64,000 nucleotides of DNA, from contig JBBSVW010000073.1 of NCBI GenBank assembly GCA_038046605.1, positions 196-64,195 of the forward strand, in the 5' to 3' direction. Source of the stretch: Candidatus Micrarchaeota archaeon. Lineage in GTDB: Archaea > Micrarchaeota > Micrarchaeia > Norongarragalinales > SBBD01. Both the position numbers and the translations under genes were made by a program. Under the pieces are notes generated by a model. The model searched no databases and was not told the DNA's origin. It worked only from the letters and a program-made list of their open reading frames with translations. Positions 1,962 to 28,679 of the stretch are shown here, in pieces; positions within the stretch are counted from its first letter, which is position 1; each line of letters begins with the position of its first letter.

Positions 1962-2213
1962 GTGATAAATATGGCAAATGTTACCCTATTCATTCCGGAT
2001 GAACTGAAAAGGCGGATGAGTAGGCACAAGGATATCCGCTGGTCAAGTGCAATCAGGACCCTAATTGAGGATAGGCTGGATATGTATGAGGAGTCCGAAA
2101 TACTTGCACAGGGCAGCAGACTAACCGATAAGGACGTAGCTTTCCTAACTCAAAAAGTGGATGCGGCAACACGCAAACACGTAAAGGCGCTAATGAATGC
2201 GAATCGTAATTGA
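1962..2213 (+). CDS. Ribbon-helix-helix (CopG/VapB-like) antitoxin
   Basis: Small basic protein, N-terminal VTLFIPDELKRRM beta-strand typical of RHH. Overlaps the downstream PIN gene. Confidence 0.55.
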   Translation: MINMANVTLFIPDELKRRMSRHKDIRWSSAIRTLIEDRLDMYEESEILAQGSRLTDKDVAFLTQKVDAATRKHVKALMNANRN

Positions 2214-2607
2214 TGCCAACATTTTGTTTGCCGCACTTCTCCGCAAGGGCTTGACCCGGCGCCTATTGTTCAATTCAGACATCAAATTGCTAGCGCCTGG
2301 ATTTATCCTAGCCGAGTTCATAAAGCACAGGAACTATTTGATTGGAAAGTTCGATCATAGCCCTGACGAATTCGATGAACTATCCTCTAATATACTTTCG
2401 GTAATCGAGCTTGTTCCCGACAATGAACTCGAACCCTATCTGGGCGCCTCCAAAACACTCGTTACCGACTTGAAGGATTGCCTATATATCGCGGTTGCAT
2501 TAAAGGAAAATGCCGCAATTTGGTCGAATGATGGTGGGATGAAAACGCAGCGCAGGATTAAGGTTTACACAACGGATGAACTCGCATCGGAATTTGGACT
2601 GCTATAA
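2197..2607 (+). CDS. vapC: PIN-domain ribonuclease (VapC-like toxin)
   Basis: MRIVIDANIL N-terminus with Asp6. Further acidic residues (TDLKD, SND) at PIN positions. 136 aa; translationally coupled to the upstream RHH gene. Confidence 0.75.
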   Translation: MRIVIDANILFAALLRKGLTRRLLFNSDIKLLAPGFILAEFIKHRNYLIGKFDHSPDEFDELSSNILSVIELVPDNELEPYLGASKTLVTDLKDCLYIAVALKENAAIWSNDGGMKTQRRIKVYTTDELASEFGLL

Positions 2608-2609
2608 AT

Positions 2610-2621
2610 AATGCTCCAAAC
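2610..2621. repeat. Direct repeat copy of tRNA-Glu 3' end (atgctccaaacg), att-like
   Basis: Exact 12-mer identical to 4729-4740, the tRNA-Glu 3' acceptor/T-stem region. Confidence 0.5.
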
Positions 2622-2657
2622 GAACTCGGTGGGCAAAATACTAATGCTCTAATCCAA

Positions 2658-3356
2658 TCAGTTTGAGCGCATTCCAACTTTCCTGGCTTGAATAAATCCA
2701 AAAAATGCATCGCTGTGTGCAATTGCCTCGGTTAGCGAATTGAACATAAATCCTTCCTTTTGCAGTTGCCTAAGTCCGCGCTTCGGATCCACCTTGGTTT
2801 TATGGATTGCCAAGGAGCGCTCTACTGAACCCCCCTTGGTGCCTACAATATTCCTTAGAATCCCCCTAAGCCGCATTTGCTTTTGGAATATCCTGTTAAC
2901 GGCTTCTGTTTTAGGAGATTTTGGCTCAACTCTTTTGAGAAGATCTACATTAATGGTCGCTATCCCACTTTTACGTACAGTTGCATTTACCGATTTCCAA
3001 CCTTGCGCCCATCCAAGCTCCCAATTCCGCAGATTGTGATATTCCTGCCTTACTTCCGGAGGCAACATGGAAAAAAAGCCAAGCTCCCTGGCCCGCTTCT
3101 CGATCTGCATTCGCCTAATCGTCCTTTCCGTCCTTTGCTGTTCCATTTGTCTTGTCAATACGCGAGGGTGTATTTCGAAAGTTCTTACGACTACTTCCCC
3201 TTCCCTGCGGCCTGGCCTAATTGCTACTGCTTTTACCCCGGTCGAAGTAAATTGCCCGCGATTACTTCTTTGCATTATCGTAAGCGTCCCGGTCGGGAGT
3301 GTTTCATACTTAGGTTCCCGTTGCCTTTTGCCGCTTCTTGGAATTATCCTACCCAT
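2658..3356 (-). CDS. Hypothetical basic (Arg/Lys-rich) protein, candidate cargo of an integrated element
   Basis: Longest ORF in the interval. Bounded by att-like repeats at 2610 and 3419. No recognisable catalytic motif. Confidence 0.4.
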   Translation of the reverse strand: MGRIIPRSGKRQREPKYETLPTGTLTIMQRSNRGQFTSTGVKAVAIRPGRREGEVVVRTFEIHPRVLTRQMEQQRTERTIRRMQIEKRARELGFFSMLPPEVRQEYHNLRNWELGWAQGWKSVNATVRKSGIATINVDLLKRVEPKSPKTEAVNRIFQKQMRLRGILRNIVGTKGGSVERSLAIHKTKVDPKRGLRQLQKEGFMFNSLTEAIAHSDAFFGFIQARKVGMRSN

Positions 3357-3386
3357 TTCAAAATTAATGGTCGAAAGACTATATAA

Positions 3387-3460
3387 TCCAAACGGAGCAT
3401 TAGCTGGTAAAAAACGGATGCTCCAAACGAGAAACAGTAGCCACGGAACGGATGCTCCTA
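3387..3460. repeat. Cluster of degenerate tRNA-Glu 3'-end copies (att scars)
   Basis: tccaaacggagcat (3387-3400), acggatgctccaaacg (3414-3430) and acggatgctcc (3447-3460) all match the tRNA-Glu 3' end, atgctccaaacgg. Confidence 0.5.
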
Positions 3461-3504
3461 TTTTTGCAATAGGAATATGGGTGAAAAGTTATATTAACTT
3501 GCTC

Positions 3505-4170
3505 TTAAGAAATTTTGGCTTCCTTATCTCCTTTCATATCAAGAAATAGGTCGTTGTTTACGAGAGCCATTAATGCCCCATTCAAGTATAAGTCTTCAGA
3601 ATATTTACTTGAAAAAAGTATTTCTAAAAACTGCTTTTTTGCAAATTTGTGCGAGGCGTCAACTGCTTCGGAAGCCGTACTTCCATTTATTAACGATTTT
3701 GGGATTTGATTCGAAGCCTCCAAAACCGGCCTTGCCATTGGATCCTTTAACGGCCTTGCGATGTATTCGTACTGAAATGGAATTATGAACTCTTTTTTGT
3801 AACCGATGAAAGCTCGCCCCCCTTTCATAATAGATGCTTCGCCTAACTCCTCTAAGCAATTACAGGCTCTTATGAACGTCACCGTATTTGCTAAAGCTTC
3901 TGCCGAAGAGAGTGTAATCACTTCTTCAAGATTATGCCCACAATAGCTATCCTTGCTGCCATGGCCATTAAGAAATACGAAATCGGGTTTTACTGAATTG
4001 AGTCTTCCAATAATATTTTTTTGGGTTACTTCATCTCCCCTAACATCGGTTACATTATAGCCGGAACTTTTCGCTTCTGTAATAATTTCCTCGCTCCAAA
4101 AGAATAAGTAGTTTGTGCCATTGTCATAATTAGGGCGGGCAATCAGTATCTTTTTCATGAATTTAATCAC
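3505..4170 (-). CDS. Compact caspase/hemoglobinase-fold-like putative cysteine peptidase (His-Gly ... Ala-Cys dyad)
   Basis: FVFLNGHGS followed ~35 aa later by FIRACNC. N-terminal KKILIARPNY beta-strand start. 221 aa. Confidence 0.45.
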   Translation of the reverse strand: MIKFMKKILIARPNYDNGTNYLFFWSEEIITEAKSSGYNVTDVRGDEVTQKNIIGRLNSVKPDFVFLNGHGSKDSYCGHNLEEVITLSSAEALANTVTFIRACNCLEELGEASIMKGGRAFIGYKKEFIIPFQYEYIARPLKDPMARPVLEASNQIPKSLINGSTASEAVDASHKFAKKQFLEILFSSKYSEDLYLNGALMALVNNDLFLDMKGDKEAKIS

Positions 4171-4387
4171 TTAGAGTAGCTGAAAGGCGGGGCATCTGTT
4201 TAATGAACTCCAGTTGCATATCCACTATTGCCTTGCCCGTATCGGTTTCCTTCCGTACTTCGCTGATTAATTCCTCCTTTGTATACGTTCCATGACTTCC
4301 AATGGAAAAGCCCACATTAGGGGGCATTGTCTGAAGCCGGGCCACAACTAATTTCTTTATTATTTCAGCATATGCCATCTTTACCAC
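4163..4387 (-). CDS. Small hypothetical protein (74 aa), operon partner of the His-Cys protein
   Basis: 8-nt overlap with the downstream gene. No known motif. Confidence 0.4.
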   Translation of the reverse strand: MVKMAYAEIIKKLVVARLQTMPPNVGFSIGSHGTYTKEELISEVRKETDTGKAIVDMQLEFIKQMPRLSATLSD

Positions 4388-4392
4388 CTGTT

Positions 4393-4626
4393 CTACAATA
4401 AACTTGCCTCTTTTAAGAATTTAAGGATTTTGTTCCCCTTTTCGGTATTATTGCTTATTTCGAGATATGCAGAAAACCAAGAATAGGTTTGCTCATCCAC
4501 AACCGCTATAATTTCCCCCCTCAGGGGCCCAGGTACTGATGCAAATAGCTTCAGGAAGCTGGGTCTGAGAGTTTCAAGATCCTCGCCCATATTATCATCC
4601 ATTCGGGATACTAGAACTCGCAGCAA
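4393..4626 (-). CDS. Small hypothetical protein (77 aa), first gene of three-gene cassette
   Basis: 5-nt spacing to the next gene on the same strand. Acidic N-terminus. Confidence 0.4.
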   Translation of the reverse strand: MLRVLVSRMDDNMGEDLETLRPSFLKLFASVPGPLRGEIIAVVDEQTYSWFSAYLEISNNTEKGNKILKFLKEASLL

Positions 4627-4693
4627 ATATATAATCCAGTAGGCTTTGCTGAGTCTTTAGGCTGCGGAAGGATGTACCGAAATCTCTCTTTTC

Positions 4694-4715
4694 TTCCAAA
4701 CGGATTTACAAACCG
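4694..4715. repeat. Degenerate copy of tRNA-Glu T-arm/3' end (tccaaacggatttacaaaccg)
   Basis: 18/21 identity to 4732-4752 of the adjacent tRNA-Glu. Confidence 0.45.
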
Positions 4716-4728
4716 AAAAGAAAAAAAA

Positions 4729-4886
4729 TGCTCCAAACGGGATTTGAACCCGTGTCGAAGGCTTTTTCCACCAAAAGAAATCATCCTTAATTTCTTTCTT
4801 TTGGACCCCTAGTTTTCTTTCTTTCCAAAAGAAAGAAAAATGGGGTTGAGAAGCCCTTATCCTTGACCGAGCTAGACGATTGGAGC
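4729..4886 (-). tRNA. tRNA-Glu (anticodon CUC) with ~83-nt intron at canonical 37/38 position (approx 4764-4846)
   Basis: Hand-folded. Acceptor GCUCCAA/UUGGAGC, U8, A14, D-stem GUCU/GGAU, anticodon stem AGGGC/GCCUU, loop UUCUCAA, T-arm ACGGG-UUCAAAU-CCCGU, A73. CCA not encoded. Confidence 0.75.
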
Positions 4887-4962: not shown

Positions 4963-5247
4963 CTACAAGAGCGCCTGCCCATCCTTCGTGCAGAATTTCG
5001 TGTCCAAAGGATATTCCGTTTTGCATTTCTGGCAAACAAGGAATAGTTTGGTGCCATCATCCGGGCAGAATTTCATGCCAAGGTCAGCAATTTTCTTCTT
5101 GCATTTTGGGCATTGCCTAGGGCCTGGAGCCTTTACGCCTTGTATTCCCTTATTCACCGCCCCGGAAACGCCCGAAGAAATTCCGCCCGCCGCCTTATTG
5201 CTCAAATCCGTTGTGACTCTTCCAACAATACTATCAAATATTCCCAT
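4963..5247 (-). CDS. Double zinc-ribbon domain protein
   Basis: Two CPxC...C..DG motifs (CPKC...FCPDDG; CQKC...FCTKDG). Confidence 0.45.
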   Translation of the reverse strand: MGIFDSIVGRVTTDLSNKAAGGISSGVSGAVNKGIQGVKAPGPRQCPKCKKKIADLGMKFCPDDGTKLFLVCQKCKTEYPLDTKFCTKDGQALL

Positions 5248-5331
5248 ATGACCACCAAAAAGCTACGAATTATGGATTATTAATTATTGGGTTTCTTCTA
5301 CTTTGGGGGCCTATTTCTAAAGTGTTGTGCC

Positions 5332-5898
5332 ATGGCAAAAATCTACACCAAAACAGGCGACTCCGGCGAAACCTCGTTCTATGGGGGGAAACGCATCCCA
5401 AAGCACGATCTGCGGCTGGAGGTATACGGTTCACTTGACGAGCTTAATTCCATTCTGGGGATGGCAAGGTCGCTATATGATCTGGGGGCAAAAACCGGCA
5501 TGCTGAATGATAGCGCTGAAATTGAGCCGCTCCTGAAAAGCCTCCAGGATGACCTATTTGTGGTGGGTTCGGATCTAGCAGCTCCGGAACACAACAAAAT
5601 CGCGCGGGTTTCCCCCAAAATGGTTGAAAGGCTCGAAAAGGAAATAGATGCGCTTGATTCCAAGCTGCCGCCACTTGCCAATTTCATCCTCCCAAGCGGC
5701 ACAATTGCGGCATCAACAATCCATCATGCAAGGACAGTTTGCCGTAGGGCGGAAAGAAAACTCTCAGATCTCAACTCCAAGGAAAAGATAAATCCGGAGC
5801 TATTGAAATATATCAATAGGCTCTCAGATCTACTATTTGTAATGGCAAGATCCGAGAACCATGCCGCTGGCTTTGGGGATGAGGTTTGGAAACCCTAA
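5332..5898 (+). CDS. PduO-type ATP:cob(I)alamin (corrinoid) adenosyltransferase
   Basis: IYTKTGDSGETS...R.EVYGSLDELNS N-terminal signature of the MMAB/PduO family. Start moved to internal ATG at 5332. Confidence 0.75.
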   Translation: MAKIYTKTGDSGETSFYGGKRIPKHDLRLEVYGSLDELNSILGMARSLYDLGAKTGMLNDSAEIEPLLKSLQDDLFVVGSDLAAPEHNKIARVSPKMVERLEKEIDALDSKLPPLANFILPSGTIAASTIHHARTVCRRAERKLSDLNSKEKINPELLKYINRLSDLLFVMARSENHAAGFGDEVWKP

Positions 5899-5915
5899 CC
5901 TAATAAAAAAAAATA

Positions 5916-6094
5916 TGCAGGGGAAGGGATTTTCATGCCTTGCCGCTAAATTCGGCGGAGCCGCAAAAGTGTTTTCTTTGGCGGCGCCATCGCCTTTCTT
6001 TTTCAAAAGAAAGGCAAGGCGATTTGAACCCTCGAACCCCTAAGGGATCAGACCCTGAATCTGACGCATTTGACCAGTCTTTGCTACCCCTGCA
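5916..6094 (-). tRNA. tRNA-Leu (anticodon CAG) with ~94-nt non-canonical intron in the T-loop/T-stem junction (approx 5929-6022)
   Basis: Acceptor GCAGGGG pairs perfectly with CCCCUGC at 5917-5923; A73 at 5916. D-arm GCAA...UGC, anticodon arm UCAGA-UUCAGGG-UCUGA, long variable arm. T-stem GAGGG + UUCAAAU, then intron, then CCCUU. Confidence 0.6.
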
Positions 6095-6180
6095 TAAGGG
6101 TTAGGATTAGAGACGGTGAAGAATAAAAATAATGGGATTTGGATGAAATCCGATTCTGAAAACAAATGGGAATGCGCATA

Positions 6181-6630
6181 TCAACGGTTGATTGGCGGGG
6201 TTGTAAAATTTCTTTCCCCAAAATCGCCCATGCAAATCAAATCCCTATTGCTAACTATGCATTTTCCCTTCAATTCCCCGCGTGGGTTTTGCACTGCGCA
6301 GGCATCCCCATCTGATTTTCCCTTGCAGGCAGTCAACGCTTCTTGCATCCTTTGCTTTTGCATCTGCGCTCTTTGTTCATCCGTCATGTTCCCAAATGTT
6401 CCGTTCCCAAAGCCGCCAATTCCGCTTCCGTTCCCCCCAAAGCTCCCATTGCGAGGCCCTCCAAATGTCCCATTCCTAAATCCGGAGCCGTTGCGATAGC
6501 CATCTCCTGGCCTTCCCTGATATGGCGCGCCATTCCCTCCGTCCTGATTGCCATTTTCGGTGCATCCCATGAGAAGGAATGACGATGCGATTATTGCCAT
6601 TGTCAAAATCCGAAATGTTATTTTTTTCAC
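6181..6630 (-). CDS. Gly/Asn-rich lipoprotein
   Basis: Signal peptide with LLMGC lipobox. Repetitive GNGS/GFGNGT low-complexity region. Cys-containing C-terminal domain. Confidence 0.5.
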   Translation of the reverse strand: MKKITFRILTMAIIASSFLLMGCTENGNQDGGNGAPYQGRPGDGYRNGSGFRNGTFGGPRNGSFGGNGSGIGGFGNGTFGNMTDEQRAQMQKQRMQEALTACKGKSDGDACAVQNPRGELKGKCIVSNRDLICMGDFGERNFTTPPINR

Positions 6631-6695
6631 TCTTAATCACCCAATAAATTCTCCTAAATAAACGATTTTTTCAAATTTAGATTCAATTGGGGTGG

Positions 6696-7967
6696 TCATT
6701 CGTAGCGCAATGACTCTACGGGCTGCAATTTCGCAGCATTCCTTGCCGGCAATGCGCCGGATACTATGCCAACGACTCCCGAAAATGCCAGCGCCATAAG
6801 CGCCAGATCAAACGTGATCAGGCTGGGCACTGAAAATGCCGCCAAAATTTGTGAAACAATTAGGCTGAGGATGATTCCAAGCATTCCGCCCGCAAGCCCT
6901 ATGATTGCAGCTTCCGTCAGGAACATTGCCGTCACCTCCGAATCCTTCATCCCAAGCGATTTCAAAATCCCAATTTCCCTAGTTCGCTCAAGCACGCTCA
7001 TGAACATGGTGTTTGCAACCCCAATTGCGCCGACCAGAAGGGAAATTGCGGCAATCCCCCCAAGGAATAGTGCCAGCATGTTTGTCACATCGGAAACCGT
7101 GGACTGCAGGAACGAAGCCGTTGTGATTGTGAAATCCGCCTTGTCGGCAGTGAGGCGATGCAACTCCAAAAGCTTAGTTTCTATTTTGGCTGCCACCTCA
7201 TCGGGGGATTTTCCAGGCGCTACCTTTATGAAAATCTGGTTTGCATTTTCCGATTCGTTAAGGATGGCTTTGGCAACCTCGATTGGAACATAAATAACAT
7301 TATCCGATGTAGTAAGGGAACCCGATGTTTGGTTGAGAAGGCCAACAACCCTAAGGGAATAATCGCCAATTTTAATTTGCCTATTTAGGAGCTCCTCCCC
7401 CCCGAACGTTGCGGAATGGACACGATAGCCAAGCACGACTGAAAAGCGGTCATTTGGGTTTAGCAGTTTCCCATCTAATAATGTGGTCGTGCTAATTTGG
7501 TTGAAAGCAGAAGGGTCAATCCCAACAATTTGAACCGTGGAGTTCCTGCCCTTGAATGATGCGCGCTTGCTTGCCTGTAACCTTGCATCAACGGCAATTA
7601 CCCCCTCTATCAATTTCAAATCCTGCGCTTCTGAAAATTTTAATTCATTAGTTCCCTGGTTGATCCTTCCCCCAAAAGTTCCCCCACCACCCGGAGGGCC
7701 GCCTCCACCAAAGCCTCCGCCGCCCCCGCCAATGAATACTCCCCCTCCCTCCCTAATCGAGCGGCTTGCTCCGGGGGTGATTTGAATCACATCATTCCCA
7801 AGCTGGTTAAGCCGAGAGCTCACCTGCTGATTTACTCCATTTGCAAGTGAGATCAGGATAATGATTGAAGCAACCGCTATCACTATCCCAAGGACCGTAA
7901 GCATTGCCCTAAGCTTCCTTCCCCTCATATTGTTAACTGACAAAAACGCAACATCCTTGTACTTCAT
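6696..7967 (-). CDS. ABC transporter permease, MacB/FtsX family, with poly-Gly insert in extracytoplasmic domain
   Basis: N-terminal TM, large extracytoplasmic domain, C-terminal FtsX-like 3-TM region. 4-nt overlap with the upstream COG1361 gene. Confidence 0.8.
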   Translation of the reverse strand: MKYKDVAFLSVNNMRGRKLRAMLTVLGIVIAVASIIILISLANGVNQQVSSRLNQLGNDVIQITPGASRSIREGGGVFIGGGGGGFGGGGPPGGGGTFGGRINQGTNELKFSEAQDLKLIEGVIAVDARLQASKRASFKGRNSTVQIVGIDPSAFNQISTTTLLDGKLLNPNDRFSVVLGYRVHSATFGGEELLNRQIKIGDYSLRVVGLLNQTSGSLTTSDNVIYVPIEVAKAILNESENANQIFIKVAPGKSPDEVAAKIETKLLELHRLTADKADFTITTASFLQSTVSDVTNMLALFLGGIAAISLLVGAIGVANTMFMSVLERTREIGILKSLGMKDSEVTAMFLTEAAIIGLAGGMLGIILSLIVSQILAAFSVPSLITFDLALMALAFSGVVGIVSGALPARNAAKLQPVESLRYE

Positions 7968-9244
7968 TTATGGCGCCTCCTATACCATTTGTAGCCAAAG
8001 AACGCCGCAACAAGCAGAATCAAAATTCCTCCAATCACAATTGGCTGAATTCCCAATATTGTGAATTGCTGCGAGTTCCTTCCAAATCTTTGGTTGGTTC
8101 CGGTTATCCCATCTGCGGTATTGCCCGTTCCGATGCCGCCAAAACCTGCAACTGCCCCAATCTCGAATTCCTTTTGCTGTATATGTTCGGCATTCAATGA
8201 ATCCTTGTAGGACACTTTGATGTAAACTTTCCCTGCTCCTTGTGTGCCGCTCATTGGCAACAAGCTAAGGGACATGCTAACCGAATCGTCCAAATTTAGC
8301 GTGCCAAAGAACTTTTCGGATGCGCCGCTAAACCTGAAATCATCCGATTCCGCGGAAATAAAAACGCCCCGAACCGGTGTATCGCCCACATTTGCAACGC
8401 CTACAACCAGGAGCTGGCCTGTGGCGCTCGTTGTAGTGGAGCTTGTATCCGCGCTCACAAGAAGGTCCGTATTGGATTCAACCTTGATGCCAAAAGTTTG
8501 CGTGATTGTCGGCTGGGCGACCTTGTCGACCTTATAGGTGATGAGAAGTGTTATGGGGTAATAGCCCGGGTCTGCGGATGGGCTTATTCCCGCATCAAAC
8601 TCAATAGTCTTTTCCGAATCAAGGGCTATTCCCTCAATATATTTCCGGTCAGAGCCTATTGGCAAAAGGACATTTCCCGGGGTGTATTGCATCTGCACGA
8701 TCACATCCTGCGCATCCCTTGCGCCCACGTTCCTTATTGTGATTGGAAGTTTTACGGTATCCCCGGAAAACACCAACAAATTCCCCCCCACATTGGCAAT
8801 GAGCGCATTTGATAATTGGGGCTCATAAATTGTCAGCTGTATCTGCGCCACCTGCGCCTGCCCCCCTGATGCACCTTGCGCATAAACATAAATATCATAG
8901 TTTCCAGGCTTTGTGGCATTTTGAACCTTGAAATTGACAGAAATTCCTTTCTTTGCACCTACTGCCAAATCATCCAGGAAATAATTGCTTGTCTGTGAGA
9001 GGAATGGAACTAGCACTTTTGCTTCCACATTCCCAATAGCCTCGCCTCCCACGTTTTGAAGATTGAATTGCAGCCTAACCTCATCGCCTGGGTAAATCCT
9101 GTCGGGAGTTTGGATAAGATCGCTAATGGTGATGCCCGATTCGTAGGTTCCGGCAATTCTTGTGACATTGAATGTTGCCGCATTAGCATTTATTGCAAAT
9201 AACAGCACGATCAATCCCAGCATTCCAATTATTCCTCTTACCAT
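7964..9244 (-). CDS. COG1361-type S-layer-domain/CARDB-like exported protein with C-terminal TM anchor
   Basis: Signal peptide, beta-rich repeats, C-terminal hydrophobic segment plus RRRHK. Co-operonic with the ABC ATPase and permease. Confidence 0.6.
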   Translation of the reverse strand: MVRGIIGMLGLIVLLFAINANAATFNVTRIAGTYESGITISDLIQTPDRIYPGDEVRLQFNLQNVGGEAIGNVEAKVLVPFLSQTSNYFLDDLAVGAKKGISVNFKVQNATKPGNYDIYVYAQGASGGQAQVAQIQLTIYEPQLSNALIANVGGNLLVFSGDTVKLPITIRNVGARDAQDVIVQMQYTPGNVLLPIGSDRKYIEGIALDSEKTIEFDAGISPSADPGYYPITLLITYKVDKVAQPTITQTFGIKVESNTDLLVSADTSSTTTSATGQLLVVGVANVGDTPVRGVFISAESDDFRFSGASEKFFGTLNLDDSVSMSLSLLPMSGTQGAGKVYIKVSYKDSLNAEHIQQKEFEIGAVAGFGGIGTGNTADGITGTNQRFGRNSQQFTILGIQPIVIGGILILLVAAFFGYKWYRRRHK

Positions 9245-9258
9245 GCCTCAACACCTCG

Positions 9259-10014
9259 TCATTTCAATTTCAAGTTTTTTTCCTTAATGGCTATTGGTTT
9301 ATCCTCATACTCTATTCTTCCATCACGCAAATGGATGATGCGCTTGCTATACTGCGCAACAGCCGGTTCGTGCGTGACCAGGACTATTGTTGCCCCCCCT
9401 TTTCCAAGTTCCGATATAAGCTCCATTACCTCCTCCCCGGATTTCGAATCCAAATTGCCTGTTGGCTCATCGGCAAGGAGGAAGGAGGGGTTGTTTGCAA
9501 GCGCGCGCGCAATTGCCACTCTTTGCTTTTCGCCTCCGCTAAGTTCCCTTGGCCGATGGTTTTTCCTATCGGTCAAGCCTACTTTTTCCAATAGCTTTAG
9601 GGCGCGTTCCCGCCTCTGGTCGGAATCCATCTCATTGATAGCCATTGCAATTTCCACATTCTCAAGCGCGCTCAGGTTGGATAGCAAATTGAACGCCTGG
9701 AAAACGAACCCTATTTTTCTGCACCGAACCTCCGCCAGGCGGTTTGCGCCAAAAGTGGAAATATCCTCCCCATCTATGAAAACCTTCCCAAACGTTGGGA
9801 GGTCAAGGCATCCTATCATCTGAAGCATCGTGCTTTTTCCGCTTCCGGATGGGCCCATGATGGAAACGAATTCGCCCTTCCTAACCGTGAAGGATATTTC
9901 ATTCAGGACGCGCAGCTTCCGGTCCCCGATAGGGTATTCCTTCGAAACCTTTTCAAATTTGATTACCTCTTTTTCTGCCGCTGCTACCAACTTTACCCCT
10001 TCTTTTAATTTCAA
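9259..10014 (-). CDS. ABC transporter ATP-binding protein (MacB/LolD-type)
   Basis: Walker A GPSGSGKST, signature LSGGEKQRVAIARAL, Walker B LLADEPTGNLD. Confidence 0.9.
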   Translation of the reverse strand: MKLKEGVKLVAAAEKEVIKFEKVSKEYPIGDRKLRVLNEISFTVRKGEFVSIMGPSGSGKSTMLQMIGCLDLPTFGKVFIDGEDISTFGANRLAEVRCRKIGFVFQAFNLLSNLSALENVEIAMAINEMDSDQRRERALKLLEKVGLTDRKNHRPRELSGGEKQRVAIARALANNPSFLLADEPTGNLDSKSGEEVMELISELGKGGATIVLVTHEPAVAQYSKRIIHLRDGRIEYEDKPIAIKEKNLKLK

Positions 10015-11824: not shown

Positions 11825-12166
11825 TTACCTCTTCGAGGTCGCATCCTCCTTCATGATCATCTTCACAATCATGAAAACGACAAATGCCACGACCAGGAAA
11901 TCGATCAGCACTCCAAGGAAATCGCCGTACTTGAAGGAATTTGTGACCGTCCCATCGGCGGCCTTTGCAAGCACAATCTCCCATGTTCTCCAATCGCCGC
12001 CGGGCGTTACGATGGAAACAAGGGGCATGATGAAATCCGCAACCAGTGCGGTCACCAATTTCCCTGCTGCCGCGCCTATGATGAATGCAACCGCAAGCCC
12101 AAGCACCTGGTATTTTTTCAAAAATTCCTTAAACTCGCCTGTAAAACGCATTATTCCCCGCCTCAA
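11825..12166 (-). CDS. mscL: Large-conductance mechanosensitive channel MscL
   Basis: FKEFL...GLAVAFIIGAAAGKLVTALVADFIMP N-terminal signature, two TMs, charged C-terminus. Confidence 0.8.
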   Translation of the reverse strand: MRRGIMRFTGEFKEFLKKYQVLGLAVAFIIGAAAGKLVTALVADFIMPLVSIVTPGGDWRTWEIVLAKAADGTVTNSFKYGDFLGVLIDFLVVAFVVFMIVKMIMKEDATSKR

Positions 12167-12212
12167 GTATTGGATGTAACGGGAAGAACGTGGAAATTTA
12201 TAAACCTAAAGC

Positions 12213-12821
12213 GTGTATTCAATTCCCCCTTCAATAAGCGAATATTTGGCGATTCCCATGCTCGACCTCCAGATGATCCTCAAAATAAGCTTCCTGCTAA
12301 ATCCCCTCTCCTCCATACCCGTTCTTTTTGTTGCCTACCACCAAAAACTCAATGTGAAATCAATTGCATTCAAATCGGTGCTGCTAGGCTTTGCGGTCGC
12401 AATTGCATTCGTTTTGATTGGGCCATACCTTTTCAATATCTATGGGATCGATATCAATTCCTTCAGGGCAGCCGGAGGGCTTGTCATCCTCCTATTGGGT
12501 TTGAGCATGGCGCGCGAAAAGAAGGACTATTCCTCCGAACACCCAGACGCCCTTGTTTCCCTCATAGCAACTCCCCTGCTAACGGGTCCAGCCACGATGT
12601 CATTCCTAATTCTCACTGCAGCTGAAGTAGGTGTAAGCTCAGTTCTTGCCAATCTTGTGTTCTCATTCCTGATAGTCGGCTCATTTTTCGTGGTAATTGC
12701 TTATATGATCCCGCATGTCAATTTGGAATACGTGCGCTTTGTCAGCCGCCTCCTTGGCCTGTTTCTCATCGCGCTTGGATTGGAAATGATGGTTTTGGGG
12801 CTCAAGGCAATTGCGTTTTGA
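12213..12821 (+). CDS. MarC-family (UPF0056) integral membrane protein
   Basis: ~200 aa, 6 predicted TM helices. Confidence 0.4.
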   Translation: MYSIPPSISEYLAIPMLDLQMILKISFLLNPLSSIPVLFVAYHQKLNVKSIAFKSVLLGFAVAIAFVLIGPYLFNIYGIDINSFRAAGGLVILLLGLSMAREKKDYSSEHPDALVSLIATPLLTGPATMSFLILTAAEVGVSSVLANLVFSFLIVGSFFVVIAYMIPHVNLEYVRFVSRLLGLFLIALGLEMMVLGLKAIAF

Positions 12822-26345: not shown

Positions 26346-28679
26346 CTATTCTGCACTAAGCTCCTCCACAACCGCCCTATCGCCGGAGTCCTTGTCGCGC
26401 TCGAAATAGAACACCTTCGAGGATGCGCCCTCCTTAAGCGCCTCATCGTGCGTTATGATGAATGTCTGCTCGACAATTTTAGGGATCTCATCCCTAAGCG
26501 CGCGGTTTAGGAGGTTCACCGCCTGGCTGTCGAGGTTGTGGGTGGGCTCGTCCAGGATGAGCCAGGAAAGATTTGGCGTAAGCACCATGGCAAATGCCAC
26601 GCGAAGCGTCAAGGCCGCGCAGCTCTTTTCCCCGCCGGAGCAATTCTCAATCCCGATCCACTGCCCATCCGGAGTTTGGAGCATCAATTCGTAATCATCG
26701 AAGCTTGGGCTTAGCATCAAGGCGCGATAATCGCCATAAGGGTAGATGCTCCCCCAAAGCGAATTCATGGCTTCGTTCATCGCCTCAATTAGCTGCGAGC
26801 GCATCAGTGTTTGCGTTTCCAAAACAGCCTCCTGGAATGAGATTAATTTTTGCGCCTTTTTTGCGAGTTCCAAAAGCTCCTCCTCCCTTGCCTTCAAATC
26901 GGCAATTTTTTGCCTTAACTGCTTGAATGCGCTTTCCAGTGTTAGCAAATTCCGCGAAATTGCCGCGTGCTGCGATTCGAGGCTTGCGGATTCCCGTTCT
27001 TCCTTGATCAATTCCATTCTTAAATGGGCAATTTTTTCGGGGCTGTGCGAAATCCTTGCAATTTCAGCATTCAAATCGATAATTTCCCCATCCAGCCCCT
27101 CGATTTCCACCCTGATTTTGGGCGCTTTTTGGGCATTCAAAAGCTCCCGTTCCAATCCTAATATTTTACCGGAGATTTCCGAGCCGTTTATTTGCGCCTC
27201 ATCCCTCCCCCTTTTAAGTTTTGGCTCATCCCCCCCGAGTTTTTCCAATTCATTGGAGCATTCCAAAAGATCCCTGGCAACATCCCCGAATTCCACGAGC
27301 CTAGCCTCATAAGTTTGCGCTTCCATGATTAGGCTTGAGAGTTTTTCTATTTTCCCTCTTTCCTCCGATGCGCGCGAATGCAAGCGCTTGATTTCCTCCC
27401 CAAGCCTTGCAATGTGCGCATGCCTTTGCTCCTCGAGCTGCCTTTTCCTTCCTGGCGTTAAGTCCGATTCGCAAATCGGGCATTTCGCATCCGCATGATG
27501 AAGCGCTTGTTGGGATTTTTCAAGCTCTTTGTTTTGCGCCTCTTTTGTTGCAAGAAGGGATGTGGTTTGCGAAAATTCCCCCTGGGCAATTTCATGTGCA
27601 AGCTTTAGGGCGCTTGCCTGCCCAATTGCCTTTGCCTTTTCAAGCAGGCTATGCCTCTCCAAAGCCCTGCGGTCAAGTTTGCCCTTTTCTGCCAATAGTA
27701 CCTTGATTCTTGCCAAAGCATTTGAGTGCTTATTGGCATTCTCCTGGCGCAGGCTCTCAATTTTTACCGCCTGCCCCCCTAGGGATTTGATTTCAGATAT
27801 GAGTTTTTCCGCATCATTTGCCCCAATCAATTTCTCCGCTTCCGCCAGTTCCCGTTTTTTTCCATTCAATAGCCCCTCTTTTCCAGCGAGCGTTTTTTCA
27901 AGGCGGGTAAATTCCCGCTCCGCCAATTCGAGCTTTTGAAGTTGCTTATTCCCTTCGTGGATTTTTTCCTTCACATGCGCCAATTTTTTCCCAGCCTCTT
28001 TGATTCCCTCCTTCAATTTTGCAATTTCCGCCTCCTTTTCCGTTTCCTCCTGCCTCAATTTGGCAATTCCTGCCCCTTCCAGATACCGTTCCAGTTCTGA
28101 TTTTTTCGAGGAGAGCTTTGATGCGGCAAGGCCGGCATTTTGCCTGGCGGCCTCAAACCTTGCAATTCCAAGCAGTTCATCGATTTGCCTTTTCCGCTCG
28201 CCTTTTTGCAGTGTCAGAATGTAATCGATTTTATTTTGCTCTGCGTAAATGATGCGCGAAAAAAGGTCGTAATCCACCCCGAGGATGCTTTCAATCAGTT
28301 CGGTAACCCTGGAAGTTTGCGCTTCCATTAGTTTGCCATCCTCGAATAGTTGCGCAGTTGTTGCCTTCTCGCCAAATTGCCTAACCGCCCTGTAGTTTTT
28401 CCCCACATGGGTGAATTCCAGCTCGACTATCCCGGCGGAATGCTTTTTTGGCCGCTGCATCACCAGCTCTTCCAATTTCACCTTCCGGCTTTTGAGCGCA
28501 GGAAACGTGCCAAATAGCGCAAAGCTTATCGCATCCATTACTGAACTCTTCCCGGATCCCATCTTTCCGATGAACAGGTTGCTCCCTTTCCCAAACCGTA
28601 GGCTGGTTTCCTCATGCGATTTCCAATTCTTCAAAAGAAGGCTATTTATCACAATTCCCCACAAGATAGGAATGGGCAA
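26346..28679 (-). CDS. rad50: Rad50/SbcC-type SMC-like ATPase
   Basis: Walker A GKMGSGKSS, long coiled-coils, central CPIC zinc hook, C-terminal signature SGGEKS and D-loop ILDEPTHNLD. Confidence 0.85.
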   Translation of the reverse strand: MPIPILWGIVINSLLLKNWKSHEETSLRFGKGSNLFIGKMGSGKSSVMDAISFALFGTFPALKSRKVKLEELVMQRPKKHSAGIVELEFTHVGKNYRAVRQFGEKATTAQLFEDGKLMEAQTSRVTELIESILGVDYDLFSRIIYAEQNKIDYILTLQKGERKRQIDELLGIARFEAARQNAGLAASKLSSKKSELERYLEGAGIAKLRQEETEKEAEIAKLKEGIKEAGKKLAHVKEKIHEGNKQLQKLELAEREFTRLEKTLAGKEGLLNGKKRELAEAEKLIGANDAEKLISEIKSLGGQAVKIESLRQENANKHSNALARIKVLLAEKGKLDRRALERHSLLEKAKAIGQASALKLAHEIAQGEFSQTTSLLATKEAQNKELEKSQQALHHADAKCPICESDLTPGRKRQLEEQRHAHIARLGEEIKRLHSRASEERGKIEKLSSLIMEAQTYEARLVEFGDVARDLLECSNELEKLGGDEPKLKRGRDEAQINGSEISGKILGLERELLNAQKAPKIRVEIEGLDGEIIDLNAEIARISHSPEKIAHLRMELIKEERESASLESQHAAISRNLLTLESAFKQLRQKIADLKAREEELLELAKKAQKLISFQEAVLETQTLMRSQLIEAMNEAMNSLWGSIYPYGDYRALMLSPSFDDYELMLQTPDGQWIGIENCSGGEKSCAALTLRVAFAMVLTPNLSWLILDEPTHNLDSQAVNLLNRALRDEIPKIVEQTFIITHDEALKEGASSKVFYFERDKDSGDRAVVEELSAE

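Follow-up and report, generated by a model that had tools for sequence, protein, structure and literature searches.

The 64-kb window analysed here (the whole stretch of 64,000 nucleotides of contig JBBSVW010000073.1, from a Candidatus Micrarchaeota archaeon) carries, downstream of a tRNA-Glu(CUC) gene, two small gene modules bounded by exact 12-nt copies of the 3' end of that tRNA, and the arrangement is probably the outcome of site-specific insertions made one after another at the 3' end of tRNA-Glu, with an integrase that was later lost or is otherwise absent. The module next to the tRNA is a three-gene cassette of foreign composition, which we call A-B-C, while the distal one holds a single gene for a 232-aa basic protein. 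The locus is also found in the public contig CAYHRO010000001.1, belonging to the metagenome-assembled genome GCA_964359135.1 from Hainich groundwater. Judged by the neighbouring cobalamin adenosyltransferase, the closest genomes recovered are those of a Candidatus Norongarragalinales archaeon (L005, 82% identity) and of a Micrarchaeota archaeon (L006, 65%), and therefore the host is a DPANN archaeon. Genome and metagenome scans with the same protein returned as archaeal relatives only these two and L084, which was uninformative, the remaining matches being bacterial.

Copies of the tRNA-Glu 3' end around two modules

The locus is laid out as follows (window coordinates).

1971-2607, plus strand: VapB (RHH_12, 80 aa) and VapC (PIN_2, 136 aa) pair, immediately outside repeat copy A
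2611-2622, plus strand: repeat copy A, exact 12-mer, the outermost boundary, 3 nt past the VapC stop codon
2611-2647, plus strand: 37-nt element, made of copy A and a 25-nt inner arm, 34/37 identical to L005 7309-7345
2658-3356, minus strand: module 1 cargo, orphan 232-aa basic protein (pI 11.6), between copies A and B
3418-3429, plus strand: repeat copy B, exact 12-mer separating module 1 from module 2
3430-4727, no strand assigned: module 2 as a whole, GC content 40.1%
3505-4158, minus strand: gene C, 217 aa, encoding a cysteine protease with a predicted caspase/CHAT/gingipain fold (alignment, AlphaFold, Foldseek)
4163-4378, minus strand: gene B, 71 aa (alignment of 9 loci)
4393-4590, minus strand: gene A, small acidic protein, 65 aa from its ATG, within a TTG-start open reading frame (ORF) that extends to 4626 (alignment of 7 loci; gene call in L001)
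4694-4715, plus strand: degenerate match to the tRNA T-arm/acceptor region, located 13 nt past the 3' end of the tRNA, statistically noise
4728-4739, plus strand: repeat copy C, the proximal attachment (att)-like core, tRNA positions 63-73 plus 1 downstream nt
4729-4886, minus strand: tRNA-Glu(CUC) gene (Rfam RF00005, 40.2 bits, full-length model match)

The three exact copies of the 12-mer ATGCTCCAAACG all lie on the plus strand within a span of 2.1 kb, with no other exact copy in the 64 kb, and the single copy with one mismatch sits at 26673 on the opposite strand. At up to one mismatch, 4 copies are observed against 0.36 expected from shuffles, and 0 of 100 shuffles reached 4. An earlier note on this DNA had read the repeats as copies of the tRNA-Glu 3' end and had raised the possibility of a generic motif; the exactness of the three copies and their origin from the tRNA stand, its coordinates, each off by 1, are corrected here, and within the 64 kb the exact 12-mer is confined to this locus. 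We aligned the last 48 nt of the tRNA locally with the 4.7 kb to its left and compared the scores with those from shuffles. Copies A and B score 24-25, and a score of at least 24 was reached in 2.5% of shuffles; since both copies reach it, and from the same query start, they are very unlikely to have arisen by chance. The edges of identity are sharp and the 12-mers sit in intergenic gaps, outside all module ORFs; the two bracketed modules described in the earlier note hold up, with the ORF at 2658-3356 (232 aa) in one and the three ORFs at 3505-4626 in the other.

The tRNA-Glu itself has its acceptor stem paired in the minimum free energy fold, and its orthologues are present in L005 and L006. 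ARAGORN reported no tRNA in the window and so missed this one; Rfam was needed because of a long intron, the anticodon loop (anticodon CUC) holding ~85 inserted nt at roughly 4763-4847. Module 2 differs from its surroundings in composition: when the 64 kb are scanned in windows of 1300 nt (mean 47.2%, standard deviation 1.7%), no GC content is as low as that of module 2.

Comparison with L005 provides a view of the same site with other contents. There the tRNA-Glu orthologue adjoins the same adenosyltransferase, and the homologue of the 37-nt element lies 1.7 kb from the tRNA-Glu 3' end, between divergent genes; it is conserved although the DNA all around it is different. The 25-nt arm is 88-92% conserved between the two genomes, whereas neighbouring genes show only 71-76% DNA identity. 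A second, degenerate copy of the element (7228-7264, 24-25/37 identical) is found in L005 81 nt further out. The cargo between element and tRNA is unrelated to that of the window and consists of an MNT-like nucleotidyltransferase, a 79-aa protein and a membrane protein; indeed, the two genomes differ in content over the whole ~6 kb from the tRNA to the next anchor gene that they share. This matches the picture of a tRNA-linked integration hotspot.

The 5' side of tRNA-Glu differs as well. At 9353-9990 L005 has an overlapping pair of genes for 95 and 117 aa, without Pfam match, which looks like a toxin-antitoxin pair, and the double-zinc-ribbon gene that lies 5' of tRNA-Glu in the window (4963-5247) has its L005 counterpart (1476-1754) 7.5 kb away.

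Cargo genes, neighbours and their relatives

Genes A (~60-70 aa) and B (~70-84 aa) are both conserved and stand upstream of C at every C locus, and A-B-C is conserved as a unit in Micrarchaeota and Patescibacteria. These two groups are the hosts of all protein C homologues, which form only ~15 clusters in 5.8 billion. The AlphaFold model of protein C has a confidence score (pLDDT) of 96, and its top Foldseek matches are SAVED-CHAT (8tl0, E 2e-7), RgpB (4ief) and caspase-4/-11, all with probability 1.0. H66, within an N-G-H66-G motif, and C99 are invariant in 14 aligned sequences. Protein C is thus predicted to have a caspase fold in minimal form and to carry a His-Cys pair, and the order of the motifs suggests that H66 and C99 are equivalent to the clan CD catalytic dyad. 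Neither A, B nor C matched any Pfam, PHROG, PADLOC or NCBIfam model, and protein C matched no curated CHAT or Peptidase_C14/C25 model.

In L163, a member of the Patescibacteria from the same aquifer, A-B-C (5454-6664) interrupts a ribosomal protein operon, with rplE on one side and rpsN on the other. A direct repeat of 24 nt, CCTCGGCTTCCCGTTTAAAAAATA, stands on both flanks in exact copies, and the left one is the rplE 3' end. In two independent genomes, the window and L163, A-B-C is found between repeats of the 3' end of a target gene, without an integrase, and in both the repeat-bounded unit is exactly A-B-C, 1.2-1.3 kb long. L162 has three direct copies (5264-5350, 7430-7517 and 8127-8212) of a 50-74-nt element (...CTAATGCCCTATC...CCTTTTGAGGAGGTGTGTAATG), which bracket two modules, one with A-B-C and a 242-aa protein and the other with an asparaginase. 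In L170 the order is tRNA 3' end, a 395-aa tyrosine recombinase (PF00589) and then A-B-C; the first 29 nt of the contig can be aligned with positions 43-71 of the tRNA model. A large serine recombinase is found 2.2 kb from A-B-C in L295, a DDE transposase adjoins it in L171, and several contigs end at or inside the cassette. From these contexts it follows that the cassette is cargo of integrating elements.

Some details of these loci are recorded for completeness. In L163 a second, unrelated gene of 210 aa follows A-B-C before rpsN. The L162 element contains a GGAGGTG-N4-ATG motif; its resemblance to the 37-nt element of the window was considered and rejected, as it rests on the 9-mer CTAATGCYC, which is not enriched in the window (3 against 1.35 expected). 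The earlier note had proposed looking for the cargo on plasmids or viruses, and that search came back empty: neither protein C nor the 232-aa protein was found in viral contigs, and protein C was not found in PLSDB plasmids or INPHARED phages either. A 15-mer scan of viral contigs gave only seemingly unrelated matches, mostly to large viral contigs of one dataset.

The 232-aa protein of module 1 has no Pfam, PHROG, PADLOC or NCBIfam match, its AlphaFold model is poor (pLDDT 55), and its sole remote full-length homologue among 1.8 billion representatives is P0017, at 28% identity. Residues 79-145 weakly resemble the RNase HI repeat/handle region in P0018 (...W..GWK....G..I.NVDL.KR.., partial, E 8e-4); the RNase H catalytic residues are not conserved. 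The genome that holds P0017, L168, has at 75-1344 two VapBC-like pairs directly beside a tRNA gene.

In the window, too, a VapBC pair is found where the earlier note had placed it, directly outside the leftmost repeat, its end lying 3 nt to the left of copy A. It has the features of a type II toxin-antitoxin system, with a PIN_2 match of E 6.7e-20, an upstream 80-aa gene on record as RHH_12 and an overlap between the two genes. The gap upstream of VapB contains AATGCTCCTAA at 1828-1838, and 1815-1837 is 78% identical to 3438-3460 beside copy B; the 8-mer alone near 1815-1838 is not significant. Going by this similarity, a third and older boundary may lie at 1815-1838, in which case VapBC would count as a module as well, the third.

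The tRNA genes of this lineage carry long insertions elsewhere too. A tRNA-Leu(CAG) at 5916-6091 of the window, on the minus strand, was missed by ARAGORN and by the Rfam gathering score (17 bits); it has a ~90-nt T-loop insertion, with the 3' exon ATCCCTTCCCCTGCA at 5930-5916. The same T-loop insertion is present in L005 tRNA-Leu, and a homologous one of ~92 nt (starting GCCTTGCC...TTTCTTTT...AAAGAAAG...GATGGC), not found in the window tRNA-Glu, in L005 tRNA-Glu (L005 positions 12047-12276 and 9008-9099). In L006 both tRNAs are intronless. The interruption of L005 tRNA-Glu was considered as an integration scar and rejected: it is an intron, because both genomes have the homologous insertion in their tRNA-Leu and pairing of the exons is preserved. 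This suggests that introns were gained by, or transposed between, the tRNA genes of this DPANN order.

Far from the locus, window ~22600-62800 is rich in genes for sugar nucleotides and glycosyltransferases (epimerases, GDP-mannose dehydratase-like, RmlD-like, GT2, GT4 and methyltransferases), which points to a large cell-surface glycosylation cluster.

Proposed integration at the tRNA and its alternatives

How could such an array arise? We propose that the DNA downstream of the tRNA-Glu 3' end is an integration hotspot, into which at least two small mobile modules would have been inserted by site-specific recombination, the crossover core consisting of the last 11 nt of tRNA-Glu and one further base. 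Every insertion would rebuild tRNA-Glu and leave behind a displaced copy of the core, so that the array would read tRNA / A-B-C cassette / core / 232-aa gene / core with the 25-nt arm / chromosome (VapBC). The recombinase would by now be gone, and the modules would be either decayed remnants or similar to cis-mobilizable elements (CIMEs), with att sites kept and the integrase provided by another element. That a tyrosine integrase made the junctions is something we infer, as is the order of the events. VapBC and the caspase-like cassette may have persisted since they are addictive or defensive.

The locus shares with tRNA-linked islands an intact tRNA-Glu at one end, distal direct repeats and a foreign or variable insert (module 2, L005); an integrase beside the att site is missing in the window and is found only in the relative L170. 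Pfam scans identified no recombinase in the module ORFs nor in 20 further mid-size ORFs, and the statement of the earlier note that no integrase is recognisable therefore survives these scans as well as the tblastn and phmmer searches of the window described below. No fragments resembling Int(N) or Int(C) of a split integrase of the type found in SSV were seen either, in a limited test with a single integrase query, and the 12-mers are outside the module ORFs. The broader claim, of mobile modules without integrase at the tRNA 3' end, is well supported for the three-gene module by its outlying GC content, by A-B-C elsewhere and by L005. For module 1 the case is circumstantial: the gene is an orphan with no tie to mobile elements, and it is taken as an inserted module because it is flanked by 12-mers and absent from L005, and for no other reason.

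Several observations weigh against serial integration. All 4-5 public assemblies of the population have an identical occupied site, and none of them shows an empty site, an excision junction or a circular junction. The sequences to be expected would be CTGCTATAAATA-ATGCTCCAAACG-GGATTTGAACCC for the empty site, GGTAAAAAACGG-ATGCTCCAAACG-GGATTTGAACCC for loss of module 2, CTGCTATAAATA-ATGCTCCAAACG-AGAAACAGTAGC for loss of module 1 and CCGAAAAGAAAAAAA-ATGCTCCAAACG-AGAAACAGTAGCC for a circle of module 2. Neither tblastn of the window with the L170 integrase, which gave no remnants, nor phmmer with that integrase, the L295 serine recombinase and the L171 transposase, which gave only noise, found traces of an enzyme. 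A block of 12 bp is short for att identity. Module 1 has ordinary GC content, and the P0017 locus in L168 has no flanking repeats. The degenerate copies that the earlier note had added at 3387-3400, 3447-3460 and 4694-4715 do no better than chance, scoring 18-21 where the mean best score of the null is 18.6; they are suggestive only through their position beside module boundaries and are no evidence by themselves, even if 4694-4715 could on its position possibly be an old integration scar. Finally, a second ATGCTC is found 33-34 nt inward of copies A (2644-2649) and B (3452-3457), with ATGCCC in the L005 element (7342-7347), and therefore the boundaries may be bipartite sites and not bare 12-mers, which hints at a structured site beyond the simple scar model. 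Since this population has yielded neither an integrase nor an empty site or an excision junction, that the integration was serial is a matter of inference. As for a strain lacking the insert, whose absence the earlier note would have counted against integration, none was found, and what the sister genome L005 offers is different cargo at the site. The end of contig L301 at 3470 was considered as a strain junction and rejected, since the contig shows no difference from the window all the way to its final base.

The absence of an integrase can also be read differently. The cassettes may never have had one, the 12-mer and its arm being a dedicated site on which a recombinase of the chromosome or of a helper (for example XerA-like) acts in trans, and we regard this as unlikely, as we do the corollary that the locus works as an array of cassettes, in the manner of integron cassettes or the pdif modules of Acinetobacter. 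Such a scheme would explain why the units in the window and in L163 have neither room for nor a remnant of an integrase, and it agrees with the three repeats around two small modules in L162, with an arm that is more conserved than the neighbouring genes (~75%) and duplicated in L005, and with the second ATGCTC at +33/34 in copies A and B. However, the repeats are wholly different between genomes (the tRNA-Glu end, the rplE end and an unrelated 50-74-mer), so there is no common cassette-borne site; the boundary sites have no significant secondary structure (z-scores -0.2 to -0.7), no recombinase was identified in the window, and in L170 A-B-C is ordinary cargo of an integrase-bearing element. 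A bolder form of the idea, to which we likewise give little weight, is that A-B-C could be a self-contained, integrase-less addiction or defence cassette of 1.2 kb that is moved in trans between DPANN archaea and bacteria of the candidate phyla radiation (CPR) and enters the 3' ends of essential genes (tRNA-Glu, rplE) by short target-derived sites, the 12-mer with its arm being a reusable docking site and the locus an archaeal cassette array.

Explanations without site-specific recombination fare worse. Local duplication of the tRNA terminator region, or retention of signals that mimic the tRNA 3' end for RNA processing or termination at operon ends, would fit with the position of each 12-mer at the end of a transcription unit and with the T-rich run that follows each of them on the minus strand, as after tRNA-Glu itself, and would do away with the need for an integrase, an empty site or a longer repeat than 12 nt. 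We consider it quite improbable, since the motif is missing from the other 59 kb despite many operon ends, the L005 element is between divergent genes and not at an operon end, the cassette is foreign in composition and mobile elsewhere, and synteny with L005 breaks exactly at this place. Casposons target tRNA 3' ends with duplications of 14-15 bp, which counts in favour of yet another origin, in which a transposase or casposase-type enzyme struck the tRNA 3' end again and again and the 12-mers are the target-site duplications that it made. The exact, sharp-edged repeats and the DDE transposase beside the cassette in L171 would be in keeping with it, but no terminal inverted repeats abut any 12-mer, neither a Cas1 nor a transposase domain turned up in the modules or close to them, and repeat lengths of 12, 24 and 50-74 nt do not fit one enzyme with a staggered cut, so that we give this origin hardly any credence. 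Serial integration at the tRNA-Glu 3' end remains our preferred explanation.

Comparison with known systems

Tandem islands bounded by repeats of the 3' end of a stable RNA gene, some of them without integration genes, are well known. The ssrA islands of Dehalococcoides are small and follow one another in tandem, downstream of a stable RNA gene; a short direct repeat of the 3' end of that gene bounds each of them, and a conserved element-side motif adjoins the repeat (PMC3146451). These features are the same here, and those islands that lack an integration module and are proposed to be cis-mobilizable (PMC3146451) resemble our modules. The differences are that here a tRNA serves as target in a DPANN archaeon, the core measures 12 bp where theirs has 20 bp, and the modules, none of which has an integration module, reach only 0.8-1.3 kb. 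The ICEs (integrative and conjugative elements) and IMEs (integrative and mobilizable elements) of Streptococcus are accompanied by CIMEs, with accretion in tandem at tRNA or 3' gene ends, and CIMEs have lost the integrase and transfer genes and kept attL and attR (PMC5704250). Both modules have this structure, being bounded by the 12-mer and encoding no recognisable recombinase. In contrast to the Streptococcus CIMEs, no related functional element was seen in this genome, and mobilization by a helper is here only putative. We know of no ICE of the Streptococcus ICE/IME family in archaea.

Among archaea a parallel is PYG1 of Pyrococcus yayanosii, a tRNA-integrated island with 44-bp repeats of tRNA-Gln (PMC9897764). 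In islands of this type an intact tRNA and a displaced partial copy enclose horizontally acquired DNA, as they do here; however, such islands are 9-23 kb long, with an integrase and repeats of 40-50 bp, whereas here we find ~1 kb, no integrase and 12 bp, and two units one behind the other. Arrays of integron cassettes and the pdif modules of Acinetobacter are made of ~1 kb promoter-plus-gene units, often encoding toxin-antitoxin or defence functions, with short recombination sites and no recombinase of their own. The likeness lies in the ~1 kb modules, the short sites that separate them and the absent recombinase. Unlike in integrons, there is no IntI, attI or palindromic attC, the repeats being direct and tRNA-derived, and unlike in pdif modules there are no inverted XerC/XerD half-sites.

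Traffic of mobile elements in DPANN archaea and CPR bacteria is little documented, their genomes being tiny and with few recognisable mobile elements. The locus would represent classic tRNA 3'-end integration at work in Micrarchaeota-related archaea, and what has survived genome streamlining appears to be very small, ~1 kb units, toxin-like or protease-bearing and without integrase. A-B-C is tolerated even within a ribosomal protein operon and is a candidate for a new toxin-antitoxin or defence system.

Protein C shares with the clan CD proteases of prokaryotic immunity, such as SAVED-CHAT (PDB 8tl0), the predicted fold and the conserved His-Cys dyad, and is carried on mobile DNA, as defence genes are. 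It differs from SAVED-CHAT in having only 217 aa and no sensor domain, and in being always paired with the small proteins A and B. Set against all these systems, the locus stands out for its DPANN host, its very small modules (0.8-1.3 kb) and its short core (12 bp), and the A-B-C cassette, common to DPANN archaea and CPR bacteria and without a match to any curated family or defence system, is its more novel part.

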